A stretch of DNA of 64,000 nucleotides from Candidatus Daviesbacteria bacterium (lineage in GTDB: Bacteria; Patescibacteriota; Microgenomatia; Daviesbacterales; UBA10151), in assembly GCA_030699125.1 (NCBI GenBank), contig JAUYKM010000009.1, positions 204,958 to 268,957 of the forward strand, given 5' to 3'. Below, piece after piece: positions 8,325 to 53,207 of this stretch (positions are counted from its first letter, which is position 1; the number at the start of each line of letters is the position of its first letter). A program made the position numbers and the translations under genes. The notes beneath the pieces are model-generated. The model saw nothing but the letters and a program-made list of their open reading frames with translations, searched no databases and was not told the DNA's origin.

Positions 8325-11045
8325 TTGCTGGATATTGGGAATTATAATATACTTTTTGAAATGTTTATATCTATACCTAAGAGAGATCTATTGCTTTTAC
8401 TCGTTATACCCCTTACCTTAGTTCTAATCTGGTTCAGAAATGGATTAATTATAGGAGGTGGAGAGGAGAGTTTACCGTTTTATAATCTTAAACATACCTT
8501 TGAAATTTCTACTTCAATCTGGGTCGAATACGCCACAGGACTTCCTATAATTGGCTGGCTTCCAAAAGCACCACTTATTTACACCGCATCATTGTTAGCA
8601 AGTATAGGTATCCCTCCTTTTATTCTACAAATGATGACATTTTATGTTTTGATGGTAGTAGGCCTTTTTAGTTTGTATTATCTTATACTGTGCTTCTTAC
8701 AAGATCGGGAAGATAAATTTACCATCGCTTTAATTACAGCTATATATTACTTATTGAATCCATTTACTTTTAGTCAAGTTTGGGGACGTGGTATATCTGC
8801 ACAATACTTTTCCTTTACTCTCTTACCGCTAACTCTTTTGATCTATATGAAGGCGCTTGAAAATAGAAAATATTGGTTTGGGATATTAATTGCTTTAATA
8901 TCTGCCATTTTTGCTGCTGCTTATCAATTTTTAACGTTTATAATAGTTCAATGGGCTGTATTATTCGCATATTCCCTGTATATACTTATCTCATCTAGGG
9001 ACAAACTAAAGCAGCTCGTGTTTATTGTCCCCTTCATGTTACTAAGTTTTACTCTCTGGGTTATTATTAATTCTTGGTGGTTAATTCCCCTTGGTTATTC
9101 AGCTACAAACGTATACTCATCAGGGATTTCCGGGGAAGCAGAAAATCTCGGGACTTTGATAGGTGTAAGCAGAAACTATACCCCGGATATTATTATTCGT
9201 CTTCTGCAAAGAACCTATTTTTACGATGCTTCTGCCTTTAGTCCAATTTATCTATCAATACCGTTTCAGCTTATTAGCTGGATCCCGGTAATATTTATAA
9301 TCCTTGCCCTTTACAAAATTTTAAAAGCAAAACTGAGGCAGTTTCGTTTTCTTGTCATTTTGCTTTTCTTAGGATTAATTATTTCATTGGGAGCAAACCC
9401 GCCTTTCGGAAGTCTATTTATAGAAGTATTTAAAAAATCTTCCATACTCCAAGCTTTCAGAAATCCTTTTGAAAAATTTGGTTTGGTTTATGCCTTAGGT
9501 TACAGTGCTATTTTTGCCTATGGGCTTACTTCATTTTTTAATAACAAGTTTAAGAGCTTAGGTATACTCTTTATATTGGGGTTAACTTGTGGCATTTTTG
9601 CCTGGCCAATGTGGACCGGCAGGGTAGTAGCTGCACCGGATAAAAAAATTGGTGTACTGGTCCCCTCCGCCTATCAGGAGTTGAATAATTGGTTAAATGA
9701 TAAAGGAGATTTTAGATTAATTATGACTCCTCTTTGGGGTGGAGATGGAGCTTTTTATCTTTGGGATGGCCATAGATATCAGGGTTCAGACCCAATGATA
9801 TTTATTGTAAATATGGGCACTATTTCAAACAGCATTAAATTGCCCTACTACTATGATTTTATAAGAGGGATCCATAAGTATAAGGAAAGAATTAATGTAG
9901 CACCTTCGCTCAGTCTACTTAGAGCAAAGTATTTGGTAGATAGAAAGGATGCCACTTTAATCAGTGAAGCAGAGAAACAACATCAAAAATATTTAACAAA
10001 GGTGATATATCCCCCAACTGAATCTATATATAATGTATGTAATGATCTTTACGATAATGCCGGGGCCGATAAAATAGCTTGGATTGTTTGTCAGGTTCCC
10101 CCAGCATATAGTAATTGGCAGGAGATCAAATATCTTCATATCAAAGTTAGAGCGAACGAGAGCGCCCTTTTAGATGTTGCAGTGCAGGACAAAAAGGGAA
10201 TTAGGATTCGCTGGGACGGCAGGATGGATAAAGAATATTCAACCATAGGGGACAGCTGGACTACGCTTATCTTACCAATTAATTACCCGACAGAATACAA
10301 TTACGCAATTGATTTTTCTGCAATTAATTCTTTGGAGATTAAGGCTCACCCTATCGGGAACCCTCTTGATACAGTTTGGGAGGTGAATTTAGGAGAGGTT
10401 AGGTTAGATACAGGTAGAGAAGAGAAAACTGATGCCTTTGACCTAGTGAAAAGTTTTGGGGCACTAGATGTATATGAACCAAATTATTTTGTAGATCCTG
10501 GTGAAGTTAATATGTTATCAAATATAAACTTTGTAGAAGATTTTATCGAATTATTTAATTTAGTCAATGAAGATAGAGAAGTTTTGAATCAAGAAGGCTT
10601 TTTAGTTTATAGTCAGAATCCAGAAAAGAATTCTGATCAACTAGTCATAAAACCAACTCTTAAAATTAAAAATTATAGCAAGATCTCAAATACTCGTTAT
10701 TGGATTCAGACTAAAGGGGAAGGAGAGGGATTAGTTTTATTAAGTAAGACTTTTGACCCGCAATGGAAAATCTTAAAGGGTGTTACTCCTGAAAAACTCT
10801 CAAGCAATTTTTTCAATAATCTCAATCTTTTAAAAGATGTATCACTGAGTGAAGATAATCATTATATAGTTAACGGTTATGCAAATTTATGGAAAATCGA
10901 TGCTGGAGAATCTGATTATGCTATAGTATACAAACCGAGGATCATAGCTGAGATAGGTTTTACGATTTCTAAATTTTCCGCCATTTTTATCTTAGGGATC
11001 GTGGCTATGTTGACGTTTAAAAATTATGTTCAAAGAAAATTCTAA
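8325..11045 (+). CDS. Giant polytopic membrane protein, YfhO/AftD-like GT-C glycosyltransferase architecture (paralog 1 of 4)
   Basis: 906 aa. About 11-13 N-terminal TM helices with an acidic GGG[DE] motif just after TM1, then a ~450-aa extracytoplasmic domain, then one C-terminal TM. It is a paralog of the 21633, 25458 and 29392 genes. The start may instead be 8361 (MFISIPK). Confidence 0.55.
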   Translation: MLDIGNYNILFEMFISIPKRDLLLLLVIPLTLVLIWFRNGLIIGGGEESLPFYNLKHTFEISTSIWVEYATGLPIIGWLPKAPLIYTASLLASIGIPPFILQMMTFYVLMVVGLFSLYYLILCFLQDREDKFTIALITAIYYLLNPFTFSQVWGRGISAQYFSFTLLPLTLLIYMKALENRKYWFGILIALISAIFAAAYQFLTFIIVQWAVLFAYSLYILISSRDKLKQLVFIVPFMLLSFTLWVIINSWWLIPLGYSATNVYSSGISGEAENLGTLIGVSRNYTPDIIIRLLQRTYFYDASAFSPIYLSIPFQLISWIPVIFIILALYKILKAKLRQFRFLVILLFLGLIISLGANPPFGSLFIEVFKKSSILQAFRNPFEKFGLVYALGYSAIFAYGLTSFFNNKFKSLGILFILGLTCGIFAWPMWTGRVVAAPDKKIGVLVPSAYQELNNWLNDKGDFRLIMTPLWGGDGAFYLWDGHRYQGSDPMIFIVNMGTISNSIKLPYYYDFIRGIHKYKERINVAPSLSLLRAKYLVDRKDATLISEAEKQHQKYLTKVIYPPTESIYNVCNDLYDNAGADKIAWIVCQVPPAYSNWQEIKYLHIKVRANESALLDVAVQDKKGIRIRWDGRMDKEYSTIGDSWTTLILPINYPTEYNYAIDFSAINSLEIKAHPIGNPLDTVWEVNLGEVRLDTGREEKTDAFDLVKSFGALDVYEPNYFVDPGEVNMLSNINFVEDFIELFNLVNEDREVLNQEGFLVYSQNPEKNSDQLVIKPTLKIKNYSKISNTRYWIQTKGEGEGLVLLSKTFDPQWKILKGVTPEKLSSNFFNNLNLLKDVSLSEDNHYIVNGYANLWKIDAGESDYAIVYKPRIIAEIGFTISKFSAIFILGIVAMLTFKNYVQRKF

Positions 11046-12693
11046 TTTAGCAATCGCACAAATTTCATCCTATCCTGGTGAAATCTCCGATAACGTCAAG
11101 AAAATTATTAATTCAATAATCAAAGCAAAAAGCATAGGTGCAAAATTGATTATTTTTCCTGAACTGGCTATTCCAGGTTATATGTCGCTTGATTTAATGC
11201 TCTATCCAAAGTATATAGAAGAGAATTTGAAGGCCTTGGATAAAATAAAGCTGTTGACAAAAGATGTAATGGCAATTATAGGATTTATTGATCAGGATAG
11301 AAATAAAATTGGTCCAGATGGTACGGCGATCAGATATAATTCAGCGGCTATTATTTATGATCAGAAAATTGTTGCTATCCAGGATAAAACTCTACTGCCT
11401 AATTACGATGTTTTCTTTGAAAAAAGATATTTTGCTGAAGGAAGGGATAGAAAAATCATCAATTTTCAGGATCTAAAATTAGGTATAGAAATATGTGAGG
11501 ATCTTTGGGATGAAAACTACTCGGTGAAGGTTTCTCAGGATTTAATAAAAAAAGGTGCAGATATTTTAATTAACATTTCAAGTTCGCCCTTCTATCTGGG
11601 TAAAAGGAACGATAGAGAGAATTTGATAAAAAGAATTAGCCTCAAATTTAAAGTCCCGTTTGTCTACGTCAATTGTGTGGGAGTCCAAGATGGTTATGAT
11701 GGCGAGTTAGTTTTTGACGGTCAAAGCATGGTTTTTAATAATAAAGGTGAATTAATTCGTTTGGGTAAAGAATTTGAAGACGATATATTTTATATAAATC
11801 CTGCTGATCTTTGGAATGGAAAGAGATTAACTCCGCCAAGATATAATCAAATTCACGATCTTTATAAAGCGCTTGTTTTAGCAATTACCAGTTATTTTAG
11901 AAGAACAAAGTTTAGAAAAGCTTATATTGGTTTGAGCGGAGGGATAGATTCTGCAGTTGTTGCCTCTTTAGCTGTGAAAGCATTGGGGAGTAAAAACGTT
12001 ACAGGTATTTTAATGCCTTCCCAATTTACAGATAAGGAGAGTATAAATGATGCGAAAAAGTTAGCAAAAAATTTGACAATTGAATATAAAATAATATTTA
12101 TAAATGGTTTATTTAAAAACTTCCAAAAGTCATTAAAAAATTCATTTAAGGAAAAAGGGGTTGATACAACAGAAGAAAATCTCCAGGCAAGAATTAGAGG
12201 AATGATTTTAATGGCCCATGCTAACAAATTTAAAGGTTTGGTAATAAGTACAGCGAACAAAACAGAAACGGCCTTAGGATATACAACGCTATATGGTGAT
12301 ATGTGTGGAGCAATCGCACCCTTGGCTGATGTAAGTAAGCTGCTTGTTTATGAACTTGCAAATTTTATAAATCAAGAACAAGAAATAGGAATAATTCCTC
12401 AAAACATCATTAAGAGAATCCCCACAGCAGAACTTAGGGTTAATCAAACAGATGAGCAGTCTCTCGGTGCACCCTACAGTATTATTTCACCTTTAGTTGA
12501 TGAAATTATTGAAGGAGGGAAAGGATCCAAAGAATTAGAAAAGAAATATTCCAAAAAGGTGGTTGAACATATTACAAATTTAATAAATCAAAATGAATAT
12601 AAAAGAAGACAAGCGGCTCCCGCAGTCAAAGTAACCAAAAAGGCCTTTGGTATTGGACGAAGGATTCCCATTGTCCACCAATTTAAAATTTGA
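11026..12693 (+). CDS. nadE: Glutamine-dependent NAD+ synthetase (CN-hydrolase domain + NAD synthase domain)
   Basis: 555 aa. An N-terminal nitrilase-like domain (FPELAIPGY, catalytic Cys region) is followed by the LSGGIDS PP-loop of NadE. Confidence 0.85.
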   Translation: MFKENSNLAIAQISSYPGEISDNVKKIINSIIKAKSIGAKLIIFPELAIPGYMSLDLMLYPKYIEENLKALDKIKLLTKDVMAIIGFIDQDRNKIGPDGTAIRYNSAAIIYDQKIVAIQDKTLLPNYDVFFEKRYFAEGRDRKIINFQDLKLGIEICEDLWDENYSVKVSQDLIKKGADILINISSSPFYLGKRNDRENLIKRISLKFKVPFVYVNCVGVQDGYDGELVFDGQSMVFNNKGELIRLGKEFEDDIFYINPADLWNGKRLTPPRYNQIHDLYKALVLAITSYFRRTKFRKAYIGLSGGIDSAVVASLAVKALGSKNVTGILMPSQFTDKESINDAKKLAKNLTIEYKIIFINGLFKNFQKSLKNSFKEKGVDTTEENLQARIRGMILMAHANKFKGLVISTANKTETALGYTTLYGDMCGAIAPLADVSKLLVYELANFINQEQEIGIIPQNIIKRIPTAELRVNQTDEQSLGAPYSIISPLVDEIIEGGKGSKELEKKYSKKVVEHITNLINQNEYKRRQAAPAVKVTKKAFGIGRRIPIVHQFKI

Positions 12694-14018
12694 TAACATT
12701 TGCTCCTATGAAAGTTTCTGTTTTAGGACTGGGAAAACTTGGATTACCGCTTTTAGCAACCTGTGCTTCAAAGGGATTCCTTAGTTATGGATACGATATT
12801 AATAAAGAAATTCTCAGCAAACTGGGCAAAAGTATAACTGATTCAAAAGAAACTTCACTAGCAACGCTTATAAAAAAATTTAAAAAAAAGATCATTACTT
12901 CAGAGAGTATTACGGATGCGGTTTTAAATTCTGATATAACATTTGTCGTTACGCCCACACCATCTAAAAAGAATGGCTCTTTTTCTAATAAATATATTTT
13001 TGATGTGGTAAAAGGGATAGCTCATGGACTCAAAGTAAAGAGTAAGTATCATTTGGTGGTGATTGTTAGTACTATTATGCCCAATTCTACTAATCAAGCA
13101 AGAAAAATTTTAGAAAAAAACTCCGGAAAGATGTGTGGCAAAGATTTTGGTTTATGTTACAACCCAGAATTTATAGCCTTGGGTAGTGTAGTCGAGAATC
13201 TACTGAATCCAGATTTTGTGTTAATTGGGCAATCAGATACGAAGTCAGGCGATATTTTAGAACAATTTTATCTTAAATTTTGTAATAATCGCCCCAAAAT
13301 TATGAGAATGAATTTTGTTAATGCGGAACTGACTAAGATCTCTCTCAATACTTATGTCACAACCAAAATCTCTTATGCTAATATGTTAACTGAAATCTGT
13401 GAGAAATTACCTGAAGGTGATGTAGATGTGATCACAAATGCTTTAGGACTAGATTCCAGAATTGGGACCAAATATTTAAAAGGAGGACCATCTTTTGGGG
13501 GTCCTTGTTTTCCCAGAGATAATTTAGCCTTTATTTATTTAGCAAGGAAATTAAAATCAAATTTCCAACTTCCATTAGCAACTCATAAAACTAATCTACA
13601 ACAAACAGATAGATTAGTTAAGATTATAATGCAGTATTCTGCTAACAGTAAGATAGGCATCCTTGGTCTATCTTATAAACCTTTCACAGATGTAATTGAA
13701 GAGTCTTTTGGGCTTATTTTAGCCAAAAAATTATTGCAACAAAAGAAAATAGTAAACGTTCATGATCCTGTGGCTTTAGAAAATGTAGAAAAGGTCTTTA
13801 AGGATCAGGTGAAATATTTTAACAATATTAAAGAATGTATTGAAGAATCAGAAGTAGTTGTTATCTCATGTAATTGGCCTCAATATAAAGCTGTCGATAA
13901 GTTTTTTAAAAGCAAAGCTAAAAAAATATTAATTGACCCTTGGCGGATGATTAACCCCAAATCACTTTCTTCCAGTGTAATTTATGTACCGGTTGGTCAA
14001 AATATTAATTATCAATGA
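12690..14018 (+). CDS. UDP-glucose/GDP-mannose dehydrogenase-family nucleotide-sugar dehydrogenase (WbpA/Ugd/WecC-like)
   Basis: 442 aa. MKVSVLGLGKLGLP is the N-terminal Rossmann motif. GGPSFGGPCFPRD is the catalytic-Cys motif. The real start is probably at M7 (12708). Confidence 0.8.
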   Translation: MITFAPMKVSVLGLGKLGLPLLATCASKGFLSYGYDINKEILSKLGKSITDSKETSLATLIKKFKKKIITSESITDAVLNSDITFVVTPTPSKKNGSFSNKYIFDVVKGIAHGLKVKSKYHLVVIVSTIMPNSTNQARKILEKNSGKMCGKDFGLCYNPEFIALGSVVENLLNPDFVLIGQSDTKSGDILEQFYLKFCNNRPKIMRMNFVNAELTKISLNTYVTTKISYANMLTEICEKLPEGDVDVITNALGLDSRIGTKYLKGGPSFGGPCFPRDNLAFIYLARKLKSNFQLPLATHKTNLQQTDRLVKIIMQYSANSKIGILGLSYKPFTDVIEESFGLILAKKLLQQKKIVNVHDPVALENVEKVFKDQVKYFNNIKECIEESEVVVISCNWPQYKAVDKFFKSKAKKILIDPWRMINPKSLSSSVIYVPVGQNINYQ

Positions 14019-15238
14019 TAAGTCTTAGAATATACATAATAGCATTGGCTGCTCATGGCCAAGGTATTTCAGGTTCTGATCGGATTTTTATTGAGTTTGC
14101 AAAAGTTTGGTCAAGAAGAAATTCTGTGACAATTTATGTTTGGGAGGAAGGGTTCAAGATGTGCCAAAGGCAACATCTTGAGATATCAAATATAAGCAAA
14201 GCTTCCCTTTTGCAAAAACAAAACGTCAAATATCAAATATCAAATATGGGAATATGGAGGAAGTTTGGTTTTGTTATAAATTATCTGGCACGGATTATAG
14301 AAGGAATAAGATTGGGTTTTTCCATTAGATTAGAAAATTCACCGTCAATTATTGTTTACTCTGCTTCTGAGTTTTGGATGGATTCTATACCTGCCTTAAT
14401 TCTCAAATTGAGATACTCAAAAATAAAATGGGTGGCGGCTTGGTTTCAGACAGCACCAAAACCTTGGGTGGGGTTTACGGAAGGTGAAAGAAGCAATACT
14501 TATAAGTTGAGTGCTTTTCTTTATTGGTTAGCTCAACTACCTATAAAACCTGTTATTTCTCATTTTGCCGACTTTATTCTAGTGAATAATGAACAGGAAA
14601 GAAAACAGTTCCCCATTCTTAATAAAAAAAACAGAGTAATTGTTGTTTTAGGAGCTGTAGATTTAACACAGATAAATCAATGGAAAAAGAAATTTAAAAA
14701 TTTACCTAAAATTTATGATGCGGTTTTTCAAGGAAGATTTCATCCACAGAAAGGAGTTGTGGAACTTATTGATATCTGGAAACTAGTAGTTAATAAAAAA
14801 AATGATGCTAAATTGGCTCTTATAGGTGAAGGTCCTTTAATGGAGGATGTGAAACAAAAGATAAACCAGTTGATGTTGCAAAAAAATATCAAACTCTTTG
14901 GTTATGTCTTTGATGGCCCCAAGAAATATAAAATATTTGCCCAATCTAAATTGGTAGTCCATCCTGCTTTTTATGATTCTGGAGGCATGGCAGCAGCAGA
15001 AGCTATGGCATTTGGTATTCCCGCTATTGGATTTAATTTACCTGCATATAAATCATATTATCCAAAAGGGATGTATAAAGTTCCAGTCAATAATTTAATG
15101 GTATTTGCTGATACAATTTTAAATCTCTTAGACAATAAAAAATTATACTTAGAATTGGGAGATGAGTCTAAGCAGATGATTTCTAAAAATTGGTCATGGG
15201 ATAAAAGAGCAAATGAGGTATTAGCTAGATTGTCATAG
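14015..15238 (+). CDS. GT4 (GT-B fold) glycosyltransferase
   Basis: 407 aa. The C-terminal GGMAAAEAMAFGIPAIGFN is an EX7E-type motif. Confidence 0.75.
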   Translation: MISLRIYIIALAAHGQGISGSDRIFIEFAKVWSRRNSVTIYVWEEGFKMCQRQHLEISNISKASLLQKQNVKYQISNMGIWRKFGFVINYLARIIEGIRLGFSIRLENSPSIIVYSASEFWMDSIPALILKLRYSKIKWVAAWFQTAPKPWVGFTEGERSNTYKLSAFLYWLAQLPIKPVISHFADFILVNNEQERKQFPILNKKNRVIVVLGAVDLTQINQWKKKFKNLPKIYDAVFQGRFHPQKGVVELIDIWKLVVNKKNDAKLALIGEGPLMEDVKQKINQLMLQKNIKLFGYVFDGPKKYKIFAQSKLVVHPAFYDSGGMAAAEAMAFGIPAIGFNLPAYKSYYPKGMYKVPVNNLMVFADTILNLLDNKKLYLELGDESKQMISKNWSWDKRANEVLARLS

Positions 15239-15267: not shown

Positions 15268-15483
15268 ATGTTGATTTTGATAAGTTTATTATCCATTTTG
15301 TTAATTTTTCCAAATGAAGTAAATGCTTATCTTGATCCCGGATCAGGCAGTTTATTTCTGCAAATGATTTTAGGATTTATATTGGGTGCTTTAATTTCTG
15401 TAAAAGTATTTTGGAAACAGGCCGTAAACTTTATAAAAAATCTTACTCGCAAGAAGGATAAAACTTCAAGTAATGAGCAGTAA
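15268..15483 (+). CDS. Small hydrophobic protein (2 predicted TM)
   Basis: 71-aa ORF with two hydrophobic helices; it overlaps the next gene's start. There is no homology evidence. Confidence 0.3.
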   Translation: MLILISLLSILLIFPNEVNAYLDPGSGSLFLQMILGFILGALISVKVFWKQAVNFIKNLTRKKDKTSSNEQ

Positions 15484-16846
15484 TTTTTCAAATGGTTCTT
15501 TTAGAGATCCCAGCGGACGTGTGTTTTTAGAAAATGGGAAAATTTACAGGACAATAGATTATTCATATAAAGATAATTATGATCAATTAATTAAGTCCGG
15601 TTTGTATGCCAAACTTACCAGTCTAGGTTTGTTGATACCTCACAGGGAAGTAAAAACACCAAATAATACTGTCTATAGAACAATTAGACCTGAGCATATT
15701 CCTTTTGTGTCCTATCCTTATGAGTGGTGTTTTAGTCAGTTTAAAGATGCCGCCTTGACTACTCTTAGAATTCAGAAAATTGCTTTGGAAAATAACATGA
15801 GTCTTAAGGATGCCAGCTCTTTCAATATCCAGTTTTTTAGGGGTAAGCCCATTTTAATTGATACTCTCTCATTTGAAAAATATCAGATAGGTTTGCCGTG
15901 GATAGCATATAGGCAATTTTGTATGCATTTTTTAGCACCTTTGCTTTTAATGAGTCAAAAGAATTTAGAATTCAATAAAATCCTTTCTATTTATATAGAC
16001 GGAGTACCTCTTAATTTGACCAGTACACTATTGCCCAAAAAAACATATCTTAATTTTTCTGCCCTAACTCATATTCATCTCCATTCCCGAATGGAAAAGC
16101 ATTTTGGTGGAAGAAAAGTTGCCTCGGGTGGGAAATCCCTCAGCAAAAAAACTCTCATAGCTCTAGTGGAAAATTTGGAAAAAACCATTCAAAACATTAA
16201 ACTTAAAAATGAAATTAGCCACTGGAGCAAGTACTATCAGGATAATAGCTATTCCTCAAAAGCCTTTTCCCATAAGAAGAAAATAGTTGATGATCTATTA
16301 AAGTCTCTAAATATAAAAACAGCCCTGGATATAGGTTCTAATACGGGATTTTTCAGCAGGCTTTATGCTAAGCGGGGGATAAATACTATCTCCATAGATA
16401 ATGATCATCTCTCAGTAGAAAAAAATTATCTAACTTGCAAAAAAGAAAATATAGATAAATGCTTACCTCTTTGTGTAGATATTACAAACCCTTCCCCTTC
16501 AATTGGCTGGAATAATGAAGAAAGATTATCGTTTATTGATCGAGGTCCTTTTGATCTTATTTTAGCGTTGGCATTGATACATCATCTGGCTATTGGCTAT
16601 AATATCCCATTGGAAAATATTGCTAAAATGTTTAGTAAATTAGGTAGAAATATTATAGTTGAGTTTGTAGCTAAAGCTGATCTCATGGTACAGAGATTGC
16701 TGGCAAACAGAAAAGACATCTTTCCAAATTATACCAGGGAGAATTTTGAGATAGAATTTAGCAAATTTTTTCAAATAAAAAAAGTAATAAATATATCTGG
16801 TTCAATAAGATCTATGTATCTTTTTAAAAATAGAATTGATATATGA
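15473..16846 (+). CDS. Two-domain protein: uncharacterised N-terminal domain fused to a class I SAM methyltransferase
   Basis: 457 aa. The C-terminal half carries LDIGSNTGFFS (motif I) and an acidic post-beta2 residue. The N-terminal ~270 aa (SFRDPSGRVF...) is unassigned. Confidence 0.55.
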   Translation: MSSNFSNGSFRDPSGRVFLENGKIYRTIDYSYKDNYDQLIKSGLYAKLTSLGLLIPHREVKTPNNTVYRTIRPEHIPFVSYPYEWCFSQFKDAALTTLRIQKIALENNMSLKDASSFNIQFFRGKPILIDTLSFEKYQIGLPWIAYRQFCMHFLAPLLLMSQKNLEFNKILSIYIDGVPLNLTSTLLPKKTYLNFSALTHIHLHSRMEKHFGGRKVASGGKSLSKKTLIALVENLEKTIQNIKLKNEISHWSKYYQDNSYSSKAFSHKKKIVDDLLKSLNIKTALDIGSNTGFFSRLYAKRGINTISIDNDHLSVEKNYLTCKKENIDKCLPLCVDITNPSPSIGWNNEERLSFIDRGPFDLILALALIHHLAIGYNIPLENIAKMFSKLGRNIIVEFVAKADLMVQRLLANRKDIFPNYTRENFEIEFSKFFQIKKVINISGSIRSMYLFKNRIDI

Positions 16847-44931: not shown

Positions 44932-45534
44932 ATGGCTATATTTCATAATCGGATGGGTCAAGAACTATCTGGGAGGCAAGCATCATCCAAGATTGCCAAC
45001 CGTCTCTATAATTATCTGGCTGATTTTGCCCTTTTTTGTATACAAGTGCTTTCGTATATTCCCTCTCACCATATTCGGAGATTTCTATACAGATTGGCTG
45101 GTGCAAAGATTGGTCAAGGCAGCACGATACATATGGGCTGTAGTTTTTTTTCTTTAAAAAAAGTGAGTATTGGAGAAGATAGCCTGATAGGACGAGGTAC
45201 TTTTTTGGATGGCAGAGCCCCCCTAAAGATTGGTGACCATGTAGATATTGCCTCAGAGGTGATGATTTATAATAGTGAGCATAATATTAATTCCGATGAC
45301 TTTCATGCCACACTTGCCCCAGTTGAAATAGAAGACTATGTATTTATTGGTCCCAGAGCCATCATTTTACCTAATGTAAGGATTGACAAAGGAGCTGTAG
45401 TGGCAGCAGGAGCTGTTGTGACAAAAGATGTTAATGAGTTCGTCATAGTAGGTGGAGTACCGGCAGAGGTGATTGGTGAGAGGAAACTGAAAGATCCAAA
45501 GTACAGATTAGGAAGGGCACGATTGTTTCAGTAG
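44932..45534 (+). CDS. Hexapeptide-repeat acetyltransferase (WcaF/CapG-like polysaccharide O-acetyltransferase)
   Basis: 200 aa with the tandem hexapeptides IGEDSLIGRGTFLDGRAPLKIGDHVDIASEVMIY and IGPRAIILPNVRIDKGAVVAAGAVV. Confidence 0.7.
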   Translation: MAIFHNRMGQELSGRQASSKIANRLYNYLADFALFCIQVLSYIPSHHIRRFLYRLAGAKIGQGSTIHMGCSFFSLKKVSIGEDSLIGRGTFLDGRAPLKIGDHVDIASEVMIYNSEHNINSDDFHATLAPVEIEDYVFIGPRAIILPNVRIDKGAVVAAGAVVTKDVNEFVIVGGVPAEVIGERKLKDPKYRLGRARLFQ

Positions 45535-45613: not shown

Positions 45614-46225
45614 TTGAGACTTGCATTCGCAAGAGATTCTTCGCTAATCGCTCAGAATGACAAAAAAGATATGAAATATTCTTTTATCATTTTTTCTCTA
45701 CTACTTCTAATTTATATGCTCTGGCCCGGGCCCACGAAAATTTCCGATTCCCCCCCTCTTCCAAATTCTGATAAATCCACTCTGGAAGGTGATACTATCC
45801 AAATACCAAACGTCTCAGCATATTTTTCCAACAATTTTAGGGATTTTGCTACCAGCTTTTATCGAAATCATTACCAGAACTCATCTCATTTTCCTTTCCC
45901 ACCACTCACGCTGAATCATCCTCCGGAATATTCCTGGATTGCCATAAAAAGGCACACGGATACCACCTATTTGGAAGAATTTGCTTACCCTCTTAGGGAT
46001 TCCTTGTATGTGAACGGTTTGGAGCCATTTTATGAAGACGGTTCACCTAAATTTTGGGGTGCCACTATGTTTGAGATTGGTCCTGCAAATTTCTTTACTA
46101 AGGTAACATTAAGATTTTATCCGTCAAATATTCTAGTCAGAATTATCGTTTGGTTAGGTGTAGTGGTGTCTATCTGGTTACTTTTTAAATTAGGCAAGCA
46201 AATTGTTTTGCAAAAATATGAGTAG
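45614..46225 (+). CDS. Hypothetical membrane-anchored protein
   Basis: 203-aa ORF. The probable start is at 45671 (MKYSFIIFSLLLLIYMLWPGP), which gives one N-terminal TM and a C-terminal TM. There is no recognisable family. Confidence 0.4.
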   Translation: MRLAFARDSSLIAQNDKKDMKYSFIIFSLLLLIYMLWPGPTKISDSPPLPNSDKSTLEGDTIQIPNVSAYFSNNFRDFATSFYRNHYQNSSHFPFPPLTLNHPPEYSWIAIKRHTDTTYLEEFAYPLRDSLYVNGLEPFYEDGSPKFWGATMFEIGPANFFTKVTLRFYPSNILVRIIVWLGVVVSIWLLFKLGKQIVLQKYE

Positions 46226-47654
46226 ACTCTTATCCATTTATAGTAAATCATTATTTATTCTAGCTGCATTTTTATTTGCTTTTATTCCTCTTTATCCCAA
46301 GTTCCCTTTTTTAAATATTGCAGGAACTTTTGTAGCAGTAAGATTGGAAGATATTCTGATTGCTTTTTTGGCCGTATCTTGGGCAATTTATATTGTTATC
46401 TCTAATAAATTGAGAGATCTCCTCAAAGATAGACTAGCTCAAGTTTTGTTGCTTTTTTTCTTTATTGGGGCTGTCTCTTTAATTTCAGGCATATTTTTAA
46501 CTCATAGCGTCTCAGGGAGTATTGGTTTACTACATCTTTTAAGAAGGGTTGAATATATGATTCTTTTGCCAATTGTGGCCACCCTTATTCAAACTAAGAA
46601 ACAATTTATAATGATTCTAATAACATTGGGGGCTGTTTTGCTAGCAGTGAACTTATATGCTTTAGGCCAGCAATTCTTAGATTGGCCGGTTATCTCTACC
46701 ACCAATTCTGAATTCTCCAAGGGATTGATTTTAAGACTGACTCCTGGAGCGAGGGTCAACTCCACTTTTGCAGGACATTATGATTTGGCGGCATTTTTGG
46801 CAATGGCATTATGTCTACTTAGTGCACTTTTCTTTGCTGTTAATAAAAGGATAAAAATAGTGGTAATTTTATTGTTTGGGAGCTCCCTTTTAGTACTGGT
46901 TATGAGTGCTGCCAGAGTTTCATTTATGGCGGCATTCTTTGGAATAATTGCTGCTCTAATCTTTTCTAAGAAAAAGAAGTATTTAATTTTCATATTCATT
47001 GCATCTTTATTGATCTTACTTTATCCCTCTCAATTAAGGGATAGATTTATTTCAACTATCACTATAAATATTTTAAATTTGGGCCAAAGATATGAAGGAC
47101 AAACGCAAGACCAGCACATCAGAAGCAAACTTAATATACCCACATTGGCAATTAAAACTTCCTCCCGGTCAGCAGAATCTTCAACTTTTGCTTCGCCCTC
47201 GGGTTCCACAGCCACAGATATTACTCCGGGTGAACCGCTAGATACCACACAGCTCGGGGTTTATAGATCTTTTCAAATTAGGCTAAATATTGAATGGCCC
47301 AGAGCCGTAAGAGCGTTTATTAAAAATCCGCTTTTGGGAACTGGCTACTCCTCAATTGATATAGCAACGGATAATGATATTTTAAGATCGTTAGGGGAGG
47401 TGGGATTGTTAGGAACTTTTGCCTTAGGACTAGTATTTATAGAGGTTGGTAAAAGGATCCACTGCTGTTTTAGAGATGAATCCAAATTAATTAAATATTT
47501 TTCTGCAGGCGTGTTAGCTATCATGATTGCCTTTTTGATAAATAGTTTATTCATAGATGTATTGGAAGCTTCAAAAGTAGCCACTCTTTTCTGGATGATA
47601 TTAGGTTTAAACTTGGCAGTATTGTCATTCCCGCGTATGCGGGAATCCAATTAA
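46203..47654 (+). CDS. Wzy_C-type O-antigen ligase/polymerase-like polytopic membrane protein
   Basis: 483 aa with ~12 TM helices. RAVRAFIKNPLLGTGYSS resembles the conserved O-antigen-ligase loop motif. It carries an S/T-rich, GC-rich insert at ~47150-47260. The last 7 codons are contributed by a GC hairpin. Confidence 0.55.
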   Translation: MFCKNMSRLLSIYSKSLFILAAFLFAFIPLYPKFPFLNIAGTFVAVRLEDILIAFLAVSWAIYIVISNKLRDLLKDRLAQVLLLFFFIGAVSLISGIFLTHSVSGSIGLLHLLRRVEYMILLPIVATLIQTKKQFIMILITLGAVLLAVNLYALGQQFLDWPVISTTNSEFSKGLILRLTPGARVNSTFAGHYDLAAFLAMALCLLSALFFAVNKRIKIVVILLFGSSLLVLVMSAARVSFMAAFFGIIAALIFSKKKKYLIFIFIASLLILLYPSQLRDRFISTITINILNLGQRYEGQTQDQHIRSKLNIPTLAIKTSSRSAESSTFASPSGSTATDITPGEPLDTTQLGVYRSFQIRLNIEWPRAVRAFIKNPLLGTGYSSIDIATDNDILRSLGEVGLLGTFALGLVFIEVGKRIHCCFRDESKLIKYFSAGVLAIMIAFLINSLFIDVLEASKVATLFWMILGLNLAVLSFPRMRESN

Positions 47655-49191: not shown

Positions 49192-50382
49192 TTGAAGATT
49201 TTAATGTTGACACCATACTTGCCTTACCCGCTTTTAACAGGCGGTCAGACTAGATCCTTTAACTTAATCAAAAGATTATCTTCTTTGGGTCATAGAATAA
49301 GTCTTTTCTGCTTAATAAAAAATGATCACGATAAAAAATATATTGGGGAATTAGAAAAATATTGTGAGGAGGTAAAAGTTTTTAAAAGATCAGAAAAACC
49401 CTGGACAGTTAGTAATATTCTAAGAACCGGATTCTCTTTTTTCCCCTTTTTGGTGATTAGAAATTGGGCCAAAGGTGAAAAAGAAGCTATTAAAGAAAAG
49501 ATTCAACAGGAAAAATTTGATCTAATTCATGCAGAAACTTTTTACGTCATGCCCCATATTCCCAAAACAGATATCCCGATATTATTGGTTGAACAAACCA
49601 TAGAGCACCTTGTTTATAAACATTTTGCAGATGAGTTTAAGATCCCTCTTATTAAACAACTACTTTATATAGATGTTTTTAAAATGAAGCATTGGGAACT
49701 CAAATACTGGCAGCAAGCTAAAAAGGTGGTAGCTATGTCTGATGAAGATTTGAAAGCCATGACAGATGAGGTTAAATCCCTGGATGTAGATACTGTACCT
49801 AATGGAGTAGATATTGAATACTTTGGGGAAAAGGTTACTCGGAGGTCTGAGACTCCAGTCGTCTTATATTTAGGCAATTTTACCTGGTTACAAAATAGAG
49901 AGGCAGTTGATATTTTGGTTAAAAAAATCTGGCCCAAGATTAAGGAAAAATTAGCAGATGCTAAATTATGGATTATTGGAAAAGGCGCCAAGGATTTTTT
50001 CGCCAAATTAGAAACAGATAGTGTCAGAGTTGATGAAGTATCAGATGTAAGAGTAGCCTATCAGCAGGCCTCTATACTGGTTGCTCCCATCTTTGGCGGA
50101 GGAGGCACCAGATATAAAAATTTTGAAGCTTTTGCCTCTGGACTGCCAGTAGTGACAACTTCAATTGGCATCAGAGGTACCGATGCTAAGGATGAAGAAG
50201 AGGTGATTATAAGAGATAGCTCCCAAGAAATTGCTGATGCTGCAATAGACTTATTGACTAACCCAGCTCTTTATAAAAAACTGGCCATTAATGCCAAAAA
50301 TATGGTTAGAGAAAAATATAACTGGGATCCGATTGCTAGAAAGTTGTCTGATATTTATGAGAAATTAGGTGAAGTATCATGA
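49192..50382 (+). CDS. GT4 (GT-B fold) glycosyltransferase
   Basis: 396 aa. N-terminal MKILMLTPYLPYPLLTGGQTRSFNL is a GT4 N-terminal domain. FEAFASGLPVVTT is the C-terminal motif. Confidence 0.75.
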   Translation: MKILMLTPYLPYPLLTGGQTRSFNLIKRLSSLGHRISLFCLIKNDHDKKYIGELEKYCEEVKVFKRSEKPWTVSNILRTGFSFFPFLVIRNWAKGEKEAIKEKIQQEKFDLIHAETFYVMPHIPKTDIPILLVEQTIEHLVYKHFADEFKIPLIKQLLYIDVFKMKHWELKYWQQAKKVVAMSDEDLKAMTDEVKSLDVDTVPNGVDIEYFGEKVTRRSETPVVLYLGNFTWLQNREAVDILVKKIWPKIKEKLADAKLWIIGKGAKDFFAKLETDSVRVDEVSDVRVAYQQASILVAPIFGGGGTRYKNFEAFASGLPVVTTSIGIRGTDAKDEEEVIIRDSSQEIADAAIDLLTNPALYKKLAINAKNMVREKYNWDPIARKLSDIYEKLGEVS

Positions 50383-51497
50383 AAATTGTGATAGATGGAA
50401 GAATGTATGCTGAATCAGGGGTAGGGAGATACATCAGAAATTTAATAACTCAATTGCAAATAATTGATAAAAAAAATGAATATTTTATTCTACTTTTGCA
50501 AAAAGACTACCCTTTCTTAAAAGAATCGGAAAATTTTCGAAAAGTTGTGGCAGAATTTAGATGGTATGGTGTCGGTGAACAAATTAAATTGCCAAAAGTT
50601 TTTAATTCCTTAAAGGCGGATCTGGTGCATTTTCCCCACTTTAATGTCCCACTTCTTTATCGAGGTAAATTTGTTGTCACCATACATGATTTAATCCATC
50701 AACATTTTCAAATGAGAAGAGCCACTACTCTTGATCCCCTAACTTATAAAATAAAACAACTTGCCTATATAAAAGTCTTTAAAAATGCAGTGACTAAATC
50801 CTTAAAAATATTGGTCCCATCAAATTATGTTAAAGAGTTGTTAATTGATGAATGGAGTTTGGGTGCTGATAAAATTGTGGTTACGCCTGAAGCAGTTGAT
50901 GACAATATATTCTCGATCGAGAAGATAATGAATAAAGAGAAAATCGAAAGAGTAATGCGGAAATTTAAAATAAATACCCCCTATATTTTTTATGTGGGTA
51001 ATGCTCATCCTCATAAAAATATAGAAGGGCTAATCAGGGCATTTTTAGAATTGAGAAAAAAATATCCAGATTTATATTTGGTACTTTCTGGTTATGATCA
51101 TTATTTTTGGCAAAGAATAAGGGAAGAATTCCAATATCCAGGTATAATCTATACCGGACATATTAGTGATGAGGAGCTGGTGGCTTTATACAAAGAAGCA
51201 GAATGTTTTGTAATGCCATCCTTTGAGGAAGGTTTTGGTATACCACTTCTGGAGGCCATGGCTTGCGGTTGTCCAGTTGTCTCATCAAATGCCGCTAGTC
51301 TGCTGGAGGTTGGCTTAGATGCCGCCATTTATTTTGATCCACGAAATTCCCAGGAGATGATAGAAAAAATCTTGCAAGTTCTAGAAGATGCAAATTTGAA
51401 AGAGAAATTAGTCAAAAAAGGAAAGGAAAGAATAAAAGTTTTCAGTTGGGAAAAATTAGCCAAGCAAACATTGGAGGTTTATTCCTCATGCGTGTAG
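50379..51497 (+). CDS. GT4 (GT-B fold) glycosyltransferase
   Basis: 372 aa with FEEGFGIPLLEAMACGCPVVSSN. Confidence 0.75.
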   Translation: MKIVIDGRMYAESGVGRYIRNLITQLQIIDKKNEYFILLLQKDYPFLKESENFRKVVAEFRWYGVGEQIKLPKVFNSLKADLVHFPHFNVPLLYRGKFVVTIHDLIHQHFQMRRATTLDPLTYKIKQLAYIKVFKNAVTKSLKILVPSNYVKELLIDEWSLGADKIVVTPEAVDDNIFSIEKIMNKEKIERVMRKFKINTPYIFYVGNAHPHKNIEGLIRAFLELRKKYPDLYLVLSGYDHYFWQRIREEFQYPGIIYTGHISDEELVALYKEAECFVMPSFEEGFGIPLLEAMACGCPVVSSNAASLLEVGLDAAIYFDPRNSQEMIEKILQVLEDANLKEKLVKKGKERIKVFSWEKLAKQTLEVYSSCV

Positions 51498-52567
51498 CCA
51501 TAGTTCATGATGACCTGGTGCAATGGGGCGGGGCTGAGAGAGTTTTGGAAGGAATTTGTGAGATTTATCCCGACGCACCAATATTTAGCTCTGTTTTTGA
51601 CAAAGATAATAAAGATTTAAAAAAAAGATTTGGCAACAAAAAAGTTTACACCTCTTTCCTGCAAAGAATTCCCGGATGGAAAAGTTTATATAAAGCGATG
51701 CTGCCGCTTTATCCGATTGCCTTTGAGCAATTTGATTTCTCTGAATATGATTTGGTGATATCTCATACCACCCGCTTTGCCAAATCAATTATTACTAAAC
51801 CTAAAACAGTTCATATTTGTTATTGTCATACACCCCCCAGATTTTTATGGAATTTTTCCGGGCAGTCTTATCCAATGCTGGAGTTTTTTTTCAAAAAGCT
51901 TAAGCCTTACGATAAAATTTCAGCTCAAAGAGTAGATTATTTTATTGCCGGATCAGAAAATGCCAAAAGGAGAATAAAGAAAGTTTATGGTAACGATTCA
52001 AAAGTGGTTTATCCTTTTGTGGATCTGAAAAGATTTGAAAATATAGAAACTTTTGATGGAGGATATTATCTGGTAATTTCCAGACTTAATAAATATAAAA
52101 GGATAGATTTGGCATTGGAAGCATGTATTAAGTTGGAATTACCACTTAAGATTATAGGGATAGGGCCGGAGTCGGAAGGGTTAAGGGTTAAGGGTAAAGG
52201 GGAAAGGGTGGAGTTTTTGAGAGAATTGGATGATGAGATGCTGGTACAAATTATGGCTGGATGCAGGGCATTAATTATTCCCGGCATTGAAGATTTTGGT
52301 ATGACATCTTTGGAGGTTCAAGCTCTAGGCAAACCCGTTATAGCATATAAAGAGGGCGGAGTTTTAGAGACAGTTCAGGAAGGGAAAACCGGTTTCTTTT
52401 TTGATTATCCTACAGTGGATAGTTTGATTAAAACTCTAGATTTTTTTAATGATTTACATCGTTGGAATAATGCAAAGATTTGCCAAGAGAATGCAAAGCG
52501 CTTTAGCAAGGACCTCTTTTTTACGAATTTTAAGCAAACAGTTGAGCATTTGTTGTACACTAATTAG
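51488..52567 (+). CDS. GT4 (GT-B fold) glycosyltransferase
   Basis: The track ORF starts at 51446. A start at 51488 (MRVAIVHDDLVQWGGAERV), overlapping the upstream stop, is more plausible. The C-terminal motif is DFGMTSLEVQALGKPVIAYKEGG. Confidence 0.7.
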   Translation: MRVAIVHDDLVQWGGAERVLEGICEIYPDAPIFSSVFDKDNKDLKKRFGNKKVYTSFLQRIPGWKSLYKAMLPLYPIAFEQFDFSEYDLVISHTTRFAKSIITKPKTVHICYCHTPPRFLWNFSGQSYPMLEFFFKKLKPYDKISAQRVDYFIAGSENAKRRIKKVYGNDSKVVYPFVDLKRFENIETFDGGYYLVISRLNKYKRIDLALEACIKLELPLKIIGIGPESEGLRVKGKGERVEFLRELDDEMLVQIMAGCRALIIPGIEDFGMTSLEVQALGKPVIAYKEGGVLETVQEGKTGFFFDYPTVDSLIKTLDFFNDLHRWNNAKICQENAKRFSKDLFFTNFKQTVEHLLYTN

Positions 52568-52573
52568 TTACAT

Positions 52574-53207
52574 GTATGATTTTCTAAAAAGGATTATGGA
52601 TATGGTGGGCTCACTTGTGGGATCAATCCTTCTACTGCCGATTTTTTTATTGGTGGCTCTGGCAATTAAATTGGATTCCCAAGGACCAATCTTTGCAGAA
52701 ACCCCCATGCGAGTAGGGCGTGATGGAGAACTTTTTAAGATGTATAAATTTAGATCTATGATTGCCAATGCTCATGGTCTTCTCACGACCGATCCTCGCT
52801 TTAAAAAGCTGTATGATGAGTATAAAAAAAGTAGTTATAAATTAACCAAAGATCCACGCATCACTAGGGTGGGTAAGTTTATCCGTAAGTACTCATTGGA
52901 TGAACTACCGCAACTGATTAATGTATTAAGAGGTGAGATGAGTCTGGTAGGTCCCCGGGCATACTATCCGGATGAGTTAGAAGAGCAACAGAAGAATTAT
53001 CCTGAGACGAAAGAATATGTCAATATTATATTATCCGGTAAACCTGGTATCACCGGAATTTGGCAAGTTTCAGGCAGATCCGGGATTAATTTTGATGAAC
53101 GAGTCAAGATGGATGCTTCATATGTACAGAAACGGTCGATTATTTACGATTTTTGGCTAATTCTCAAAACAATTCCGGCAGTTATTTCCGGAAAAGGAGC
53201 AGTTTAA
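52574..53207 (+). CDS. Initiating sugar-phosphate transferase (bacterial sugar transferase / WbaP-PssY-type small PGT)
   Basis: [36 protein letters not shown] is the Bac_transf signature. The start was chosen at [13 protein letters not shown] (52574) rather than the track's 52449. Confidence 0.85.

Follow-up and report, generated by a model that had tools for sequence, protein, structure and literature searches.

A probable core envelope-glycan locus of Daviesbacteria and related Microgenomates with several AftD-like glycosyltransferase paralogs

A preliminary description of a 64,000-nucleotide stretch of Candidatus Daviesbacteria DNA (contig JAUYKM010000009.1, positions 204,958 to 268,957; hereafter the window) had proposed a glycan gene cluster at positions 8325-53207. 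We found that about 45 tightly packed genes make up one contiguous glycan-assembly region larger than this range, from a partial GFO/IDH/MocA open reading frame (ORF) at the start of the window (1-829) to the end of a DUF4012 gene at 55099. We consider it probable, though well short of certain, that the region from 1 to ~55,100 is a conserved core envelope-glycan locus of Daviesbacteria and related Microgenomates, operating as a hybrid two-compartment assembly line. Absent from the preliminary description were the conservation across the lineage, the likeness of four membrane glycosyltransferases of the GT-C fold to mycobacterial AftD, and the adjoining nucleoside diphosphate (NDP)-sugar operon in the same region.

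We scanned one genome per species for relatives of the giant GT-C protein and labeled ORFs by their best match to window genes, which gave 30 related loci from Daviesbacteria, Woesebacteria, a 'Microgenomates group' bacterium and other metagenome-assembled genomes (MAGs) of Patescibacteria. The recurring gene order, which includes genes that are not always present, starts with a GT-C of 906 residues, a family 4 glycosyltransferase (GT4), a family 2 glycosyltransferase (GT2), a methyltransferase, a GT2-methyltransferase fusion, a GT-C of 1166 residues, a small protein with four transmembrane (TM) helices, a GT-C of 1153 residues, a second 4-TM protein and a GT-C of 889 residues. It continues with a Wzx flippase, a GT2, one or two methyltransferases, a GT2, a GT4, a PMT_2-type GT-C (one of the genes not always present), a GT2, another PMT_2-type GT-C, the family of the protein encoded at 41380 (genes are named hereafter by their first coordinate in Table 1) and a GT4. 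The second half was found gene for gene in two Daviesbacteria (GT4, acetyltransferase, 184-residue protein, Wzy_C protein, PMT_2, three GT4, Bac_transf), with 53-73% identity to the window genes in locus L035 and the same gene order in L036; the 184-residue protein (45614) has a 64% identical ortholog at the same position in L035. Homologs of GT-C 29392 occur in 24 loci (median identity 50%), of GT4 14015 in 23 of the 30 (59%), of GT2 18424 in 17 (69%) and of methyltransferase 34787 in 15, and the GT2-methyltransferase fusion ORF is present in 15/30. Identity to relatives reaches 82% for Wzx and 74-81% for GT4 42756, against 33-46% for the giant GT-Cs. The conserved order together with this pattern of identity, high for Wzx and GT4 and lower for the giant GT-Cs, speaks for a conserved core polymer and against a variable serotype island. 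Because the two giant GT-Cs fall into separate ortholog groups in relatives, their tandem duplication is old.

The same comparison bears on whether the block could be an ordinary strain-variable O-antigen or capsule island acquired horizontally, or an assembly chimera, the latter having been raised in the preliminary description. Glycan islands are commonly variable, and the AT-rich window (30-39% GC) shows a small drop in GC inside the block, whose middle stands at 0.30-0.33 against 0.38-0.39 for the right flank. However, collinear orthologous loci were found in 30 independently assembled genomes, including long single contigs of 744-770 kb, and this synteny excludes a chimeric assembly. Across species, identity is 60-82% for several genes; the block abuts the division and cell wall (dcw) cluster, and the 64-kb window contained no gene for a transposase, an integrase or a tRNA. 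An acquired island or a chimera is thus extremely unlikely.

Fifteen loci are titled 'uncultured Gammaproteobacteria' (L005, L007, L008, L012, L014, L016, L018, L019, L021, L022, L025-L027, L030 and L032); these labels look wrong, because the loci are of the Daviesbacteria/Microgenomates type and collinear with the window. At L033:10001-12703, labeled Candidatus Aenigmatarchaeota (DPANN), we observed a distant relative of the AftD-like GT-Cs (25-28% identity) next to glycosyltransferase, methyltransferase, DegT and Ugd genes, which could stem from faulty binning or from horizontal gene transfer among episymbiont lineages.

The window itself holds 35 consecutive plus-strand ORFs in 8325-53207, or 36 if counted on to 55099, and no credible opposite-strand gene was found within 8325-53207 in the ORF list, in agreement with the contiguous, co-directional block of the preliminary description. 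Neighboring genes mostly overlap, typically by 4 nt; 31 of the 34 junctions in 8325-53207 are overlaps or gaps of at most 41 nt. Compared with related single contigs of 0.74-0.77 Mb, the region of ~54 kb corresponds to at most ~7%, as an estimate of the coding share. Only three longer gaps (234, 147 and 79 nt) split the plus-strand run, and they could be taken to separate several independent co-located pathways with two or more products, namely the NDP-sugar operon with its ArnC-like GT2, the AftD-like GT-Cs with a GT2/methyltransferase triad, and the Wzx/Wzy/phosphoglycosyl transferase genes with the PMT_2-type GT-Cs. Such an arrangement would be in line with the left part of the run (NadE, Ugd, the 457-residue protein and the EptA-like protein), which is absent or different in relatives, with the opposite-strand genes that stand between modules in some relatives, and with the several GT-A/GT-C pairs that Lactococcus lactis and Bacillus subtilis use for different polymers (PMC8035078). 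On the other hand, the order of the modules is kept across species in which many genes share only 33-60% identity, the whole block has one phosphoglycosyl transferase, one Wzx and one Wzy_C protein, and of the 19 related loci with a Wzx homolog, 15 have it immediately behind the fourth AftD-like gene. We regard separate pathways as possible but doubtful.

Four large proteins (8325, 21633, 25458 and 29392) share a topology of ~8-10 N-terminal TM helices, a large ectodomain and one C-terminal TM helix, and are paralogs according to profile-profile comparisons (hhalign E 6e-182 to 9e-42). An AlphaFold2 (AF2) model of the 1166-residue protein, built on 37 homologs, had a predicted local distance difference test score (pLDDT) of 82.7 and a predicted TM-score (pTM) of 0.79. 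It displays an N-terminal multi-TM domain and an extracytoplasmic alpha/beta domain, as in the GT-C fold, followed by a beta-rich part at residues 800-1130 and a single C-terminal helix at 1135-1165. When this model was compared with the PDB by Foldseek, three mycobacterial AftD structures were the best matches (6W98, E 8.7e-18, TM-score 0.47/0.42), the oligosaccharyltransferases STT3 and PglB came next, and the C-terminal region was matched by the carbohydrate-binding module (CBM) family CBM16 (TM-score 0.62-0.67 on the target) and by other jelly-roll/beta-sandwich folds. Only the fold comparison was informative: sequence and profile searches of the PDB returned nothing significant for the giant GT-C or the 889-residue protein, and NCBIfam gave only noise for the unknown proteins, such as weak matches to MmpA (29392) and WgkC (21633). 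Pfam GT-C_AftD (PF11847) matched 21633 and 25458 below threshold (20.2 and 19.0 bits for a cut-off of 26) and did not match 8325 or 29392; many orthologs of 21633 bear precomputed PF11847 matches. Among its homologs, a hypothetical protein of a Candidatus Daviesbacteria MAG (locus tag Q8P92_02165, on a contig of 360,208 bp) is 100% identical to 21633, which places the organism in the Microgenomates within the Patescibacteria.

AftD consists of a GT-C domain and three CBMs that bind complex glycans; K39, D41, E251, K361 and D474 are essential, of which D41 lies in the first extracytoplasmic region, and homologs have been reported solely from Actinobacteria (bioRxiv 10.1101/2019.12.22.885152). 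The first loop of the 1166-residue family contains a YGGGD motif, whose D35 is nearly invariant in 37 sequences. All four window paralogs have Asp or Glu at this acidic position and three of the four have an RNPFEK motif, as in 8325, where ~8 N-terminal TM helices and a C-terminal one accompany GGGEE and RNPFEK motifs. Judged by motif and region, the first-loop acidic residue appears to lie where AftD has D41. As in arabinan assembly by AftD, AftA-C and EmbA-C, an N-terminal multi-TM catalytic domain is combined with a CBM-type beta-sandwich ectodomain and a C-terminal membrane anchor, several paralogs share one locus, and a possibly equivalent acidic residue occupies the first extracytoplasmic loop. 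Unlike AftD, to which sequence identity is ~10%, the window protein has a single C-terminal TM helix in place of the bundle that binds the acyl carrier protein (ACP), and an extra helical domain of ~130 residues that is DUF5667-like in orthologs. Moreover, in contrast to arabinan assembly, the backbone here appears Wzx/Wzy-dependent.

The two largest GT-C genes are each overlapped at the end by the gene of a 4-TM protein of ~110 residues. These small proteins share a GS.G.G motif and a basic C terminus of the LIKKGY.EKL type, and a search of 1.84 billion protein clusters at E <= 1e-3 brought up just 27 representatives of their family. Pfam searches at E up to 10 with the two window proteins and 15 homologs found no consistent family, and the PDB gave no match. 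A small 4-TM GtrA-like protein, Rv3789, adjoins the mycobacterial arabinosyltransferase genes. The gene position in the window recalls GtrA-type flippases or GacJ-type helper proteins, which are known in multi-component glycosylation systems (PMC8035078), and we propose that the 4-TM proteins may serve as donor flippases or as GT-C subunits. It is tempting to go further, although only tentatively and with low confidence: the AftD-like GT-C set would build a core cell-wall heteropolysaccharide largely outside the membrane, as a counterpart of arabinogalactan in the candidate phyla radiation (CPR), decorated with O-methyl, C-methyl-amino and acetyl groups, and the 4-TM proteins would represent a new flippase class or an obligatory GT-C subunit.

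Pfam and fold matches placed Wzx, Wzy-like, phosphoglycosyl transferase and GT-C components in one region, as first described. Four PMT_2-type enzymes (PMT_2 being the protein mannosyltransferase/ArnT family) bring the GT-C proteins to eight, at the upper end of the 7-8 expected. For 37137, whose PMT_2 score is below the cut-off, hhalign gave a probability of 96.9 against 47668. The 41380 protein has no Pfam match of its own, and neither a PDB search nor local hhalign against the shallow PMT alignments of the window was significant for its family; nevertheless, 24 of its 40 orthologs (55-75% identical) match PMT_2 (best E 7.9e-12). The seven GT4 enzymes that had been announced were all found in range by Pfam (14015, 36202, 42756, 43781, 49192, 50379 and 51446), whereas five of the six GT2 enzymes lie in 8325-53207 (18424, the N-terminal half of 20042, 33336, 35467 and 39259) and the sixth lies outside, on the minus strand at 2717-3427. 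The best NCBIfam matches of 35467 were the polyprenyl-phosphate sugar synthases AglJ, PgfS, ArnC and PpgS, all far under their curated cut-offs; such synthases were likewise the best sub-threshold matches of 2717 and, more weakly, of 39259.

The Wzx-like flippase at 32080 and the UDP-sugar dehydrogenase at 12690, with all three of its domains, agree with their first identification (Table 1). So does the Wzy/ligase-like protein at 46203, where Wzy_C reached 30.7 bits for a cut-off of 31.7 in the window protein and stood above threshold in collinear orthologs. The initiating transferase had been called WbaP-type. Its Bac_transf match is strong, and it also matches the C-terminal halves of EPS_sugtrans and WbaP, but with its most likely start at ATG 52572 it is a short, PglC-sized enzyme of the monotopic type (~211 residues) rather than a full-length WbaP. 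Only one of the two reported acetyltransferases is in range (44932), the second being found upstream (2175). The protein described as LtaS-like (16843) shares superfamily and topology with LtaS, having four N-terminal TM helices at residues 30-145 by hydropathy, yet its fold is closer to EptC, EptA and MCR-1: these were the best Foldseek matches of its AF2 model (pLDDT 87.5), followed by sulfatases and PbgA, and LtaS was not among the best 50 (EptC, EptA, MCR-1/2, ICR, sulfatases and PbgA). Pfam Sulfatase (PF00884) did not match 16843 itself, whereas many homologs bear it, and the single sequence found nothing significant in the PDB. The DUF4012 family is reported to be enriched in CPR and Gram-positive bacteria and occurs in a Bifidobacterium exopolysaccharide cluster (PMC6744442); the protein at 53153 is probably an auxiliary envelope-polysaccharide component.

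From the family and fold assignments, the operon-like packing and the conservation, we infer the cytoplasmic roles, the export step and the outer-face chemistry as follows. The short phosphoglycosyl transferase would prime polyprenyl phosphate at the cytoplasmic face, the seven GT4 and several GT2 enzymes would extend the lipid-linked unit, and the hexapeptide acetyltransferase and the class I methyltransferases, one of them fused to a GT2, would decorate it. Wzx would flip the unit, and the Wzy_C protein would polymerize or ligate it, possibly helped by the DUF4012 protein. At the outer face, the eight GT-Cs may add residues or branches from polyprenyl-phosphate monosaccharides, which would be made by the three ArnC/AglJ-like GT2 enzymes (35467, 39259 and 2717). 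The AftD-like enzymes may hold the glycan via their CBM-like domains, an architecture that, according to the model, would allow binding of a polymeric acceptor, and the EptA-like protein may add a phospho-substituent. As the product we predict a heteropolysaccharide, methylated and acetylated, that belongs to the envelope of the monoderm CPR cell.

Several points weigh against this reading. The evidence is wholly computational and all genomes are MAGs, and the block may make several products instead of a single one. The Wzy_C match is sub-threshold in the window protein, and, as a sequence domain, Wzy_C would not separate a polymerase from a ligase or an O-oligosaccharyltransferase. No window ORF had a Pfam match to a Wzz/GNVR chain-length regulator, and the window contains no LytR-CpsA-Psr (LCP) ligase and no ABC exporter. 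The C-terminal multi-TM bundle by which AftD binds ACP is absent from the 1166-residue protein, and Pfam found no UbiA-type or DprE-type genes for a decaprenyl-phosphate-arabinose donor in the window. Membership of the 4-TM proteins in GtrA or SMR was rejected, since Pfam gave no consistent family for the 17 proteins. The methyltransferases within 8325-53207 are of a generic class I kind, none having a specific sugar O-methyltransferase assignment, and the putative polyprenyl-phosphate sugar synthases are best matches below every curated cut-off.

The locus might alternatively serve mainly protein O-glycosylation of an S-layer, type IV pilins or both, with the Wzy_C protein as O-oligosaccharyltransferase and the PMT_2-type GT-Cs acting directly on secreted proteins. 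The four GT-Cs of the PMT_2 family would suit such a role, and both a reliance on pili and a Gram-positive-like envelope have been reported for CPR cells (PMC6744442). Wzy_C also occurs in the predicted S-layer O-oligosaccharyltransferases WsaB and WsfB and in PglL and PilO, and S-layer glycan clusters are tight co-directional operons with a methyltransferase-glycosyltransferase fusion, WsaE, by which a 2-O-methyl cap is made (PMC2943079). However, the characterized Geobacillus S-layer pathway uses an ABC transporter instead of Wzx (PMC2943079), no S-layer or pilin gene was found in the window, and the CBM-like ectodomains of the four AftD-like enzymes point to a polysaccharide acceptor. We judge mainly protein-directed glycosylation to be unlikely, yet a glycan of an S-layer or of proteins still has to be reckoned with as the product, and the protein and polysaccharide readings are not mutually exclusive.

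Methylation of the predicted envelope polysaccharide depends on the substrates of the methyltransferases. Six such domains fall in 8325-53207 (15473, which is weak, 19389, the C-terminal half of 20042, 34134, 34787 and 38501), and the ~9 previously counted are reached when the upstream 3436, 4327 and 7472 are included. The N-terminal 230 residues of 15473 had no Pfam match, and the nearest PDB entries of 34134 are generic methyltransferases, one of them a D-glucose O-methyltransferase. If most of these enzymes had non-sugar substrates, a possibility that the preliminary description had itself allowed for, and acted on rRNA/tRNA, quinones or lipids, the product would not be methylation-rich; the in-range enzymes indeed match only generic class I models (UbiG, MetW, BioC, Hen1-like), all under cut-offs. 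Nevertheless, no cluster methyltransferase reached an NCBIfam equivalog cut-off for rRNA/tRNA or small-molecule substrates, one is covalently fused to a GT2, four overlap adjoining glycosyltransferase genes by 4 nt, and their positions are conserved in relatives. RsmH/MraW (58527), the one clear RNA methyltransferase of the window, belongs to the dcw operon and not to the cluster. A sugar substrate for the in-range enzymes is thus indicated by context, that is, by the GT2 fusion, translational coupling and conserved positions, whereas the upstream 3-C-methyltransferase (4327) is in addition directly homologous to the NDP-sugar enzymes MtmC, KijD1 and TcaB9. Non-sugar substrates for most of the methyltransferases are therefore very unlikely. 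We conclude that a methylated product is likely and that its O-methylation is plausible; the densely O-methylated polymer of the preliminary description goes further than generic class I assignments can carry. Nor did its proposed likeness to methylated mannose/glucose polysaccharides (MGLP/MMP) find specific support. These are cytoplasmic polymers that need neither Wzx nor GT-C, whereas Wzx, Wzy_C and eight GT-Cs indicate an exported product, so that the likeness goes no further than 'methylated glycan'. In the relatives L010, L029 and L031 the GT2-methyltransferase fusion has a much greater length (745-904 residues), which points to an additional domain or to another fusion event.

The minus-strand operon at 1-8308 would contribute a modified sugar. 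The homology of 4327 extends over its full length (MtmC 4RV9, E 8.5e-65, residues 26-427; KijD1 and TcaB9 were also matched), taking in the N-terminal zinc-binding and the C-terminal domains of 3-C-methyltransferases, and the aminotransferase at 1046 exceeds the NCBIfam cut-off for dTDP-4-amino-4,6-dideoxygalactose transaminase (381.2 bits for a cut-off of 375). The truncated gene at 1-829 probably encodes a sugar-nucleotide oxidoreductase. On the simplest reading of these gene families, the operon would yield an N-acetylated 4-amino-3-C-methyl-deoxyhexose, which the ArnC-like GT2 (2717) would load onto a lipid carrier for a GT-C. Nucleotidyltransferase, short-chain dehydrogenase/reductase (SDR), 3-C-methyltransferase, 4-aminotransferase and acetyltransferase are combined as in the TcaB9/KijD1/MtmC and WecE pathways. 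The known 3-C-methyltransferases (TcaB9, KijD1 and MtmC) make antibiotic deoxysugars in actinomycetes, whereas the setting here is a CPR envelope glycan. Loading of an amino sugar on undecaprenyl phosphate for a GT-C resembles the ArnB-ArnC-ArnT route, although the link to a particular GT-C here would be putative.

The two divergent operons are 16 nt apart with the longest ORFs, or ~52 nt if the GT-C starts at ATG 8361 (8308-8361), which leaves very little room for two promoters. A scan for consensus promoters and terminators was uninformative (38 sites, with 39.6 expected). Scans for tandem repeats and homopolymers gave no convincing phase-variation signal. Three G7/C7 runs lie inside cluster genes (28237-28243 in GT-C 25458, 37647-37653 in PMT_2 37137 and 45750-45756 in the unknown 45614), with a rough chance expectation of ~0.4 in sequence of 33% GC and a length at the lower limit for slipped-strand phase variation.

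All parts of the locus are of known kinds: Wzx/Wzy assembly, extracytoplasmic glycosylation by GT-Cs, NDP-sugar tailoring and EptA-like transferases. The hybrid logic has a precedent in the model proposed for the secondary cell wall polysaccharide of Bacillus anthracis, where a Wzx/Wzy backbone is combined with a GT-A, a flippase and a GT-C (GtsABC) (PMC8035078). In three-component transmembrane glycosylation, a GT-A makes an undecaprenyl-phosphate-linked sugar, which a flippase carries over and a GT-C then attaches to a polymer outside the membrane (PMC8035078), and the window similarly has GT2s with ArnC/AglJ/PgfS/PpgS-like best matches beside GT-C genes. It differs in having eight GT-Cs, GT2 matches under cut-offs and no LCP ligase in the window, and the orphan 4-TM family stands in place of a GtrA-family flippase. 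Wzx/Wzy loci for O-antigen, capsule or exopolysaccharide have in common with the region Bac_transf, Wzx, Wzy_C, many GT4 and GT2 genes, an acetyltransferase, an adjacent NDP-sugar pathway and a co-directional main run. In contrast to such loci, the gene order is conserved across species instead of hypervariable, Wzz or another polysaccharide co-polymerase is missing, eight GT-C genes and many methyltransferases are interleaved, and the host is a monoderm CPR bacterium without lipopolysaccharide. The slg clusters of Geobacillus and Paenibacillus resemble the locus in the methyltransferase-glycosyltransferase fusion, the Wzy_C transferase and the tight polycistronic layout (PMC2943079). However, WsaE has an N-terminal methyltransferase and two glycosyltransferase domains, whereas the window fusion has one GT2 domain followed by the methyltransferase; Geobacillus uses a Wzm/Wzt ABC exporter and no GT-C, and the window has no S-layer gene. 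Literature searches turned up no account of the locus or of GT-C glycan systems in CPR bacteria. What is new is that these parts are combined, and on such a scale, in a reduced CPR genome, along with the strict conservation across a candidate phylum-level lineage, the multi-paralog AftD-like family outside Actinobacteria and the orphan small membrane partner.

Table 1. Genes of the glycan region, with window coordinates, strand and the matches on which each assignment is based.
Feature	Coordinates	Strand	Basis
Partial GFO/IDH/MocA oxidoreductase	1..829	-	Pfam GFO_IDH_MocA 74.6 bits and C-terminal domains; runs off window start
NDP-4-keto-6-deoxyhexose 4-aminotransferase (WecE/DegT type)	1046..2173	-	DegT_DnrJ_EryC1 338.8 bits
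Hexapeptide-repeat acetyltransferase, WcaF-like	2175..2720	-	Hexapep; WcaF-family 81.9 bits, under cut-off
GT2, ArnC/PgfS-like	2717..3427	-	Glycos_transf_2 85 bits; NCBIfam ArnC, PgfS best, under cut-off
Class I S-adenosylmethionine (SAM) methyltransferase	3436..4296	-	Methyltransf_11 73.5 bits
NDP-sugar 3-C-methyltransferase	4327..5637	-	Methyltransf_13 65 bits, Methyltransf_14 137 bits
SDR-family NDP-sugar epimerase/dehydratase	5628..6659	-	Epimerase 145 bits, GDP_Man_Dehyd
Sugar-1-phosphate nucleotidyltransferase, glucose-1-phosphate cytidylyltransferase-like	6644..7420	-	NTP_transferase; TIGR02623 258 bits, cut-off 300
FkbM-family methyltransferase	7472..8308	-	Methyltransf_21 46.5 bits; TIGR01444 75 bits, above cut-off 37.7
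AftD-like GT-C, 906 aa	8325..11045	+	hhalign against 1166-aa family E 6e-182; likely start ATG 8361
Glutamine-dependent NAD synthetase NadE	11026..12693	+	NAD_synthase 249 bits and CN_hydrolase
UDP-glucose/GDP-mannose dehydrogenase (Ugd)	12690..14018	+	All three UDPG_MGDP_dh domains
GT4, conserved beside first GT-C	14015..15238	+	Glycos_transf_1 87 bits
457-aa protein, weak C-terminal methyltransferase domain, accessory	15473..16846	+	Methyltransf_23 19.9 bits, under cut-off
Membrane-anchored sulfatase/alkaline-phosphatase-fold transferase (EptA/EptC/LtaS superfamily), accessory, 524 aa	16843..18417	+	Fold
GT2, rhamnosyltransferase/MftF-like	18424..19347	+	Glycos_transf_2; NCBIfam
Class I SAM methyltransferase	19389..20045	+	Methyltransf_25/11/12; 32% identical to C-terminal half of fusion
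GT2-methyltransferase fusion	20042..21646	+	Glycos_transf_2 101.6 bits (residues 7-179), Methyltransf_11 51.6 bits (346-436)
AftD-like GT-C with CBM-like ectodomains, C-terminal TM anchor, 1166 aa	21633..25133	+	AF2 and Foldseek
Orphan 4-TM protein, 112 aa, after GT-C 21633	25130..25468	+	TM prediction
AftD-like GT-C, tandem paralog, 1153 aa	25458..28919	+	36% identity to 21633 over full length
Orphan 4-TM protein, 111 aa, paralog of 25130	28909..29244	+	hhalign E 3.6e-44
Divergent AftD-like GT-C, 889 aa	29392..32061	+	hhalign E 1.4e-42 and 8.7e-42 against two other families
Wzx-type (MOP family) flippase	32080..33339	+	Polysacc_synt 82.3 bits, cut-off 28.2; 10 TM helices
GT2	33336..34130	+	Glycos_transf_2 61 bits
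Class I SAM methyltransferase	34134..34790	+	Methyltransf_11 79.5 bits
Class I SAM methyltransferase	34787..35470	+	Methyltransf_23/11/12, NodS 33.3 bits
GT2, polyprenyl-phosphate sugar synthase-like	35467..36198	+	Glycos_transf_2 118 bits
GT4	36202..37140	+	Glycos_transf_1 100.5 bits
PMT_2-type GT-C, 455 aa	37137..38504	+	PMT_2 21.4 bits, under cut-off 26.1; 8 TM helices
Class I SAM methyltransferase	38501..39262	+	Methyltransf_11 80 bits
GT2	39259..39996	+	Glycos_transf_2 72.7 bits
PMT_2-type GT-C, 481 aa	39975..41420	+	PMT_2 52.3 bits; DE motif in first loop
Probable PMT_2-type GT-C (annotated product 448 aa)	41380..42759	+	Via orthologs
GT4	42756..43784	+	Glycos_transf_1 and Glyco_transf_4
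GT4	43781..44908	+	Glycos_transf_1 125.9 bits
Hexapeptide-repeat acetyltransferase	44932..45534	+	Hexapep 60 bits; WcaF-family 96 bits, under cut-off
Conserved protein, 2 predicted TM helices, between acetyltransferase and Wzy-like gene	45614..46225	+	No Pfam match
Wzy_C-domain protein (polymerase, ligase or O-oligosaccharyltransferase)	46203..47654	+	Wzy_C; 11 TM helices
PMT_2-type GT-C, 501 aa	47668..49173	+	PMT_2 48.3 bits
GT4	49192..50382	+	Glyco_trans_1_4 81.5 bits
GT4	50379..51497	+	Glycos_transf_1 123 bits
GT4	51446..52567	+	Glycos_transf_1 76 bits
Short polyprenyl-phosphate phosphoglycosyl transferase, ~211 aa	52572..53207	+	Bac_transf 207 bits, cut-off 27
DUF4012 membrane protein	53153..55099	+	DUF4012 89.5 bits; one N-terminal TM helix

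NadE, Ugd, the 457-residue protein and the EptA-like protein form a variable insertion that differs among relatives. NadE is unrelated to glycans although it sits inside the operon and overlaps both neighbors, and it was found at this position in 0/30 related loci. The right flank (55119-64000) is of a housekeeping nature, with RecO, a class II aminoacyl-tRNA synthetase and an unknown 296-residue protein with an N-terminal TM helix, followed by the dcw genes MraZ, RsmH, a 98-residue FtsL-like ORF (59475-59771) and FtsI; beyond FtsI are an SDR, a protein with a PaaX_M/Cas2-like domain at 62790 and a partial Mur ligase at the window end.

Hardly anything is known about envelope chemistry in CPR/Patescibacteria, although it probably governs host attachment, phage recognition and survival. 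If the product were an ordinary capsule-like polymer, the present assignment would be a useful annotation and not a conceptual advance. The locus nevertheless provides a concrete, conserved blueprint of ~45 genes, amounting to at most ~7% of a ~0.75-Mb genome. It extends AftD-type GT-Cs with CBM ectodomains from Actinobacteria to Microgenomates, with multiple paralogs per locus, and the orphan membrane family linked to these AftD-like enzymes may be a new part of extracytoplasmic glycosylation.

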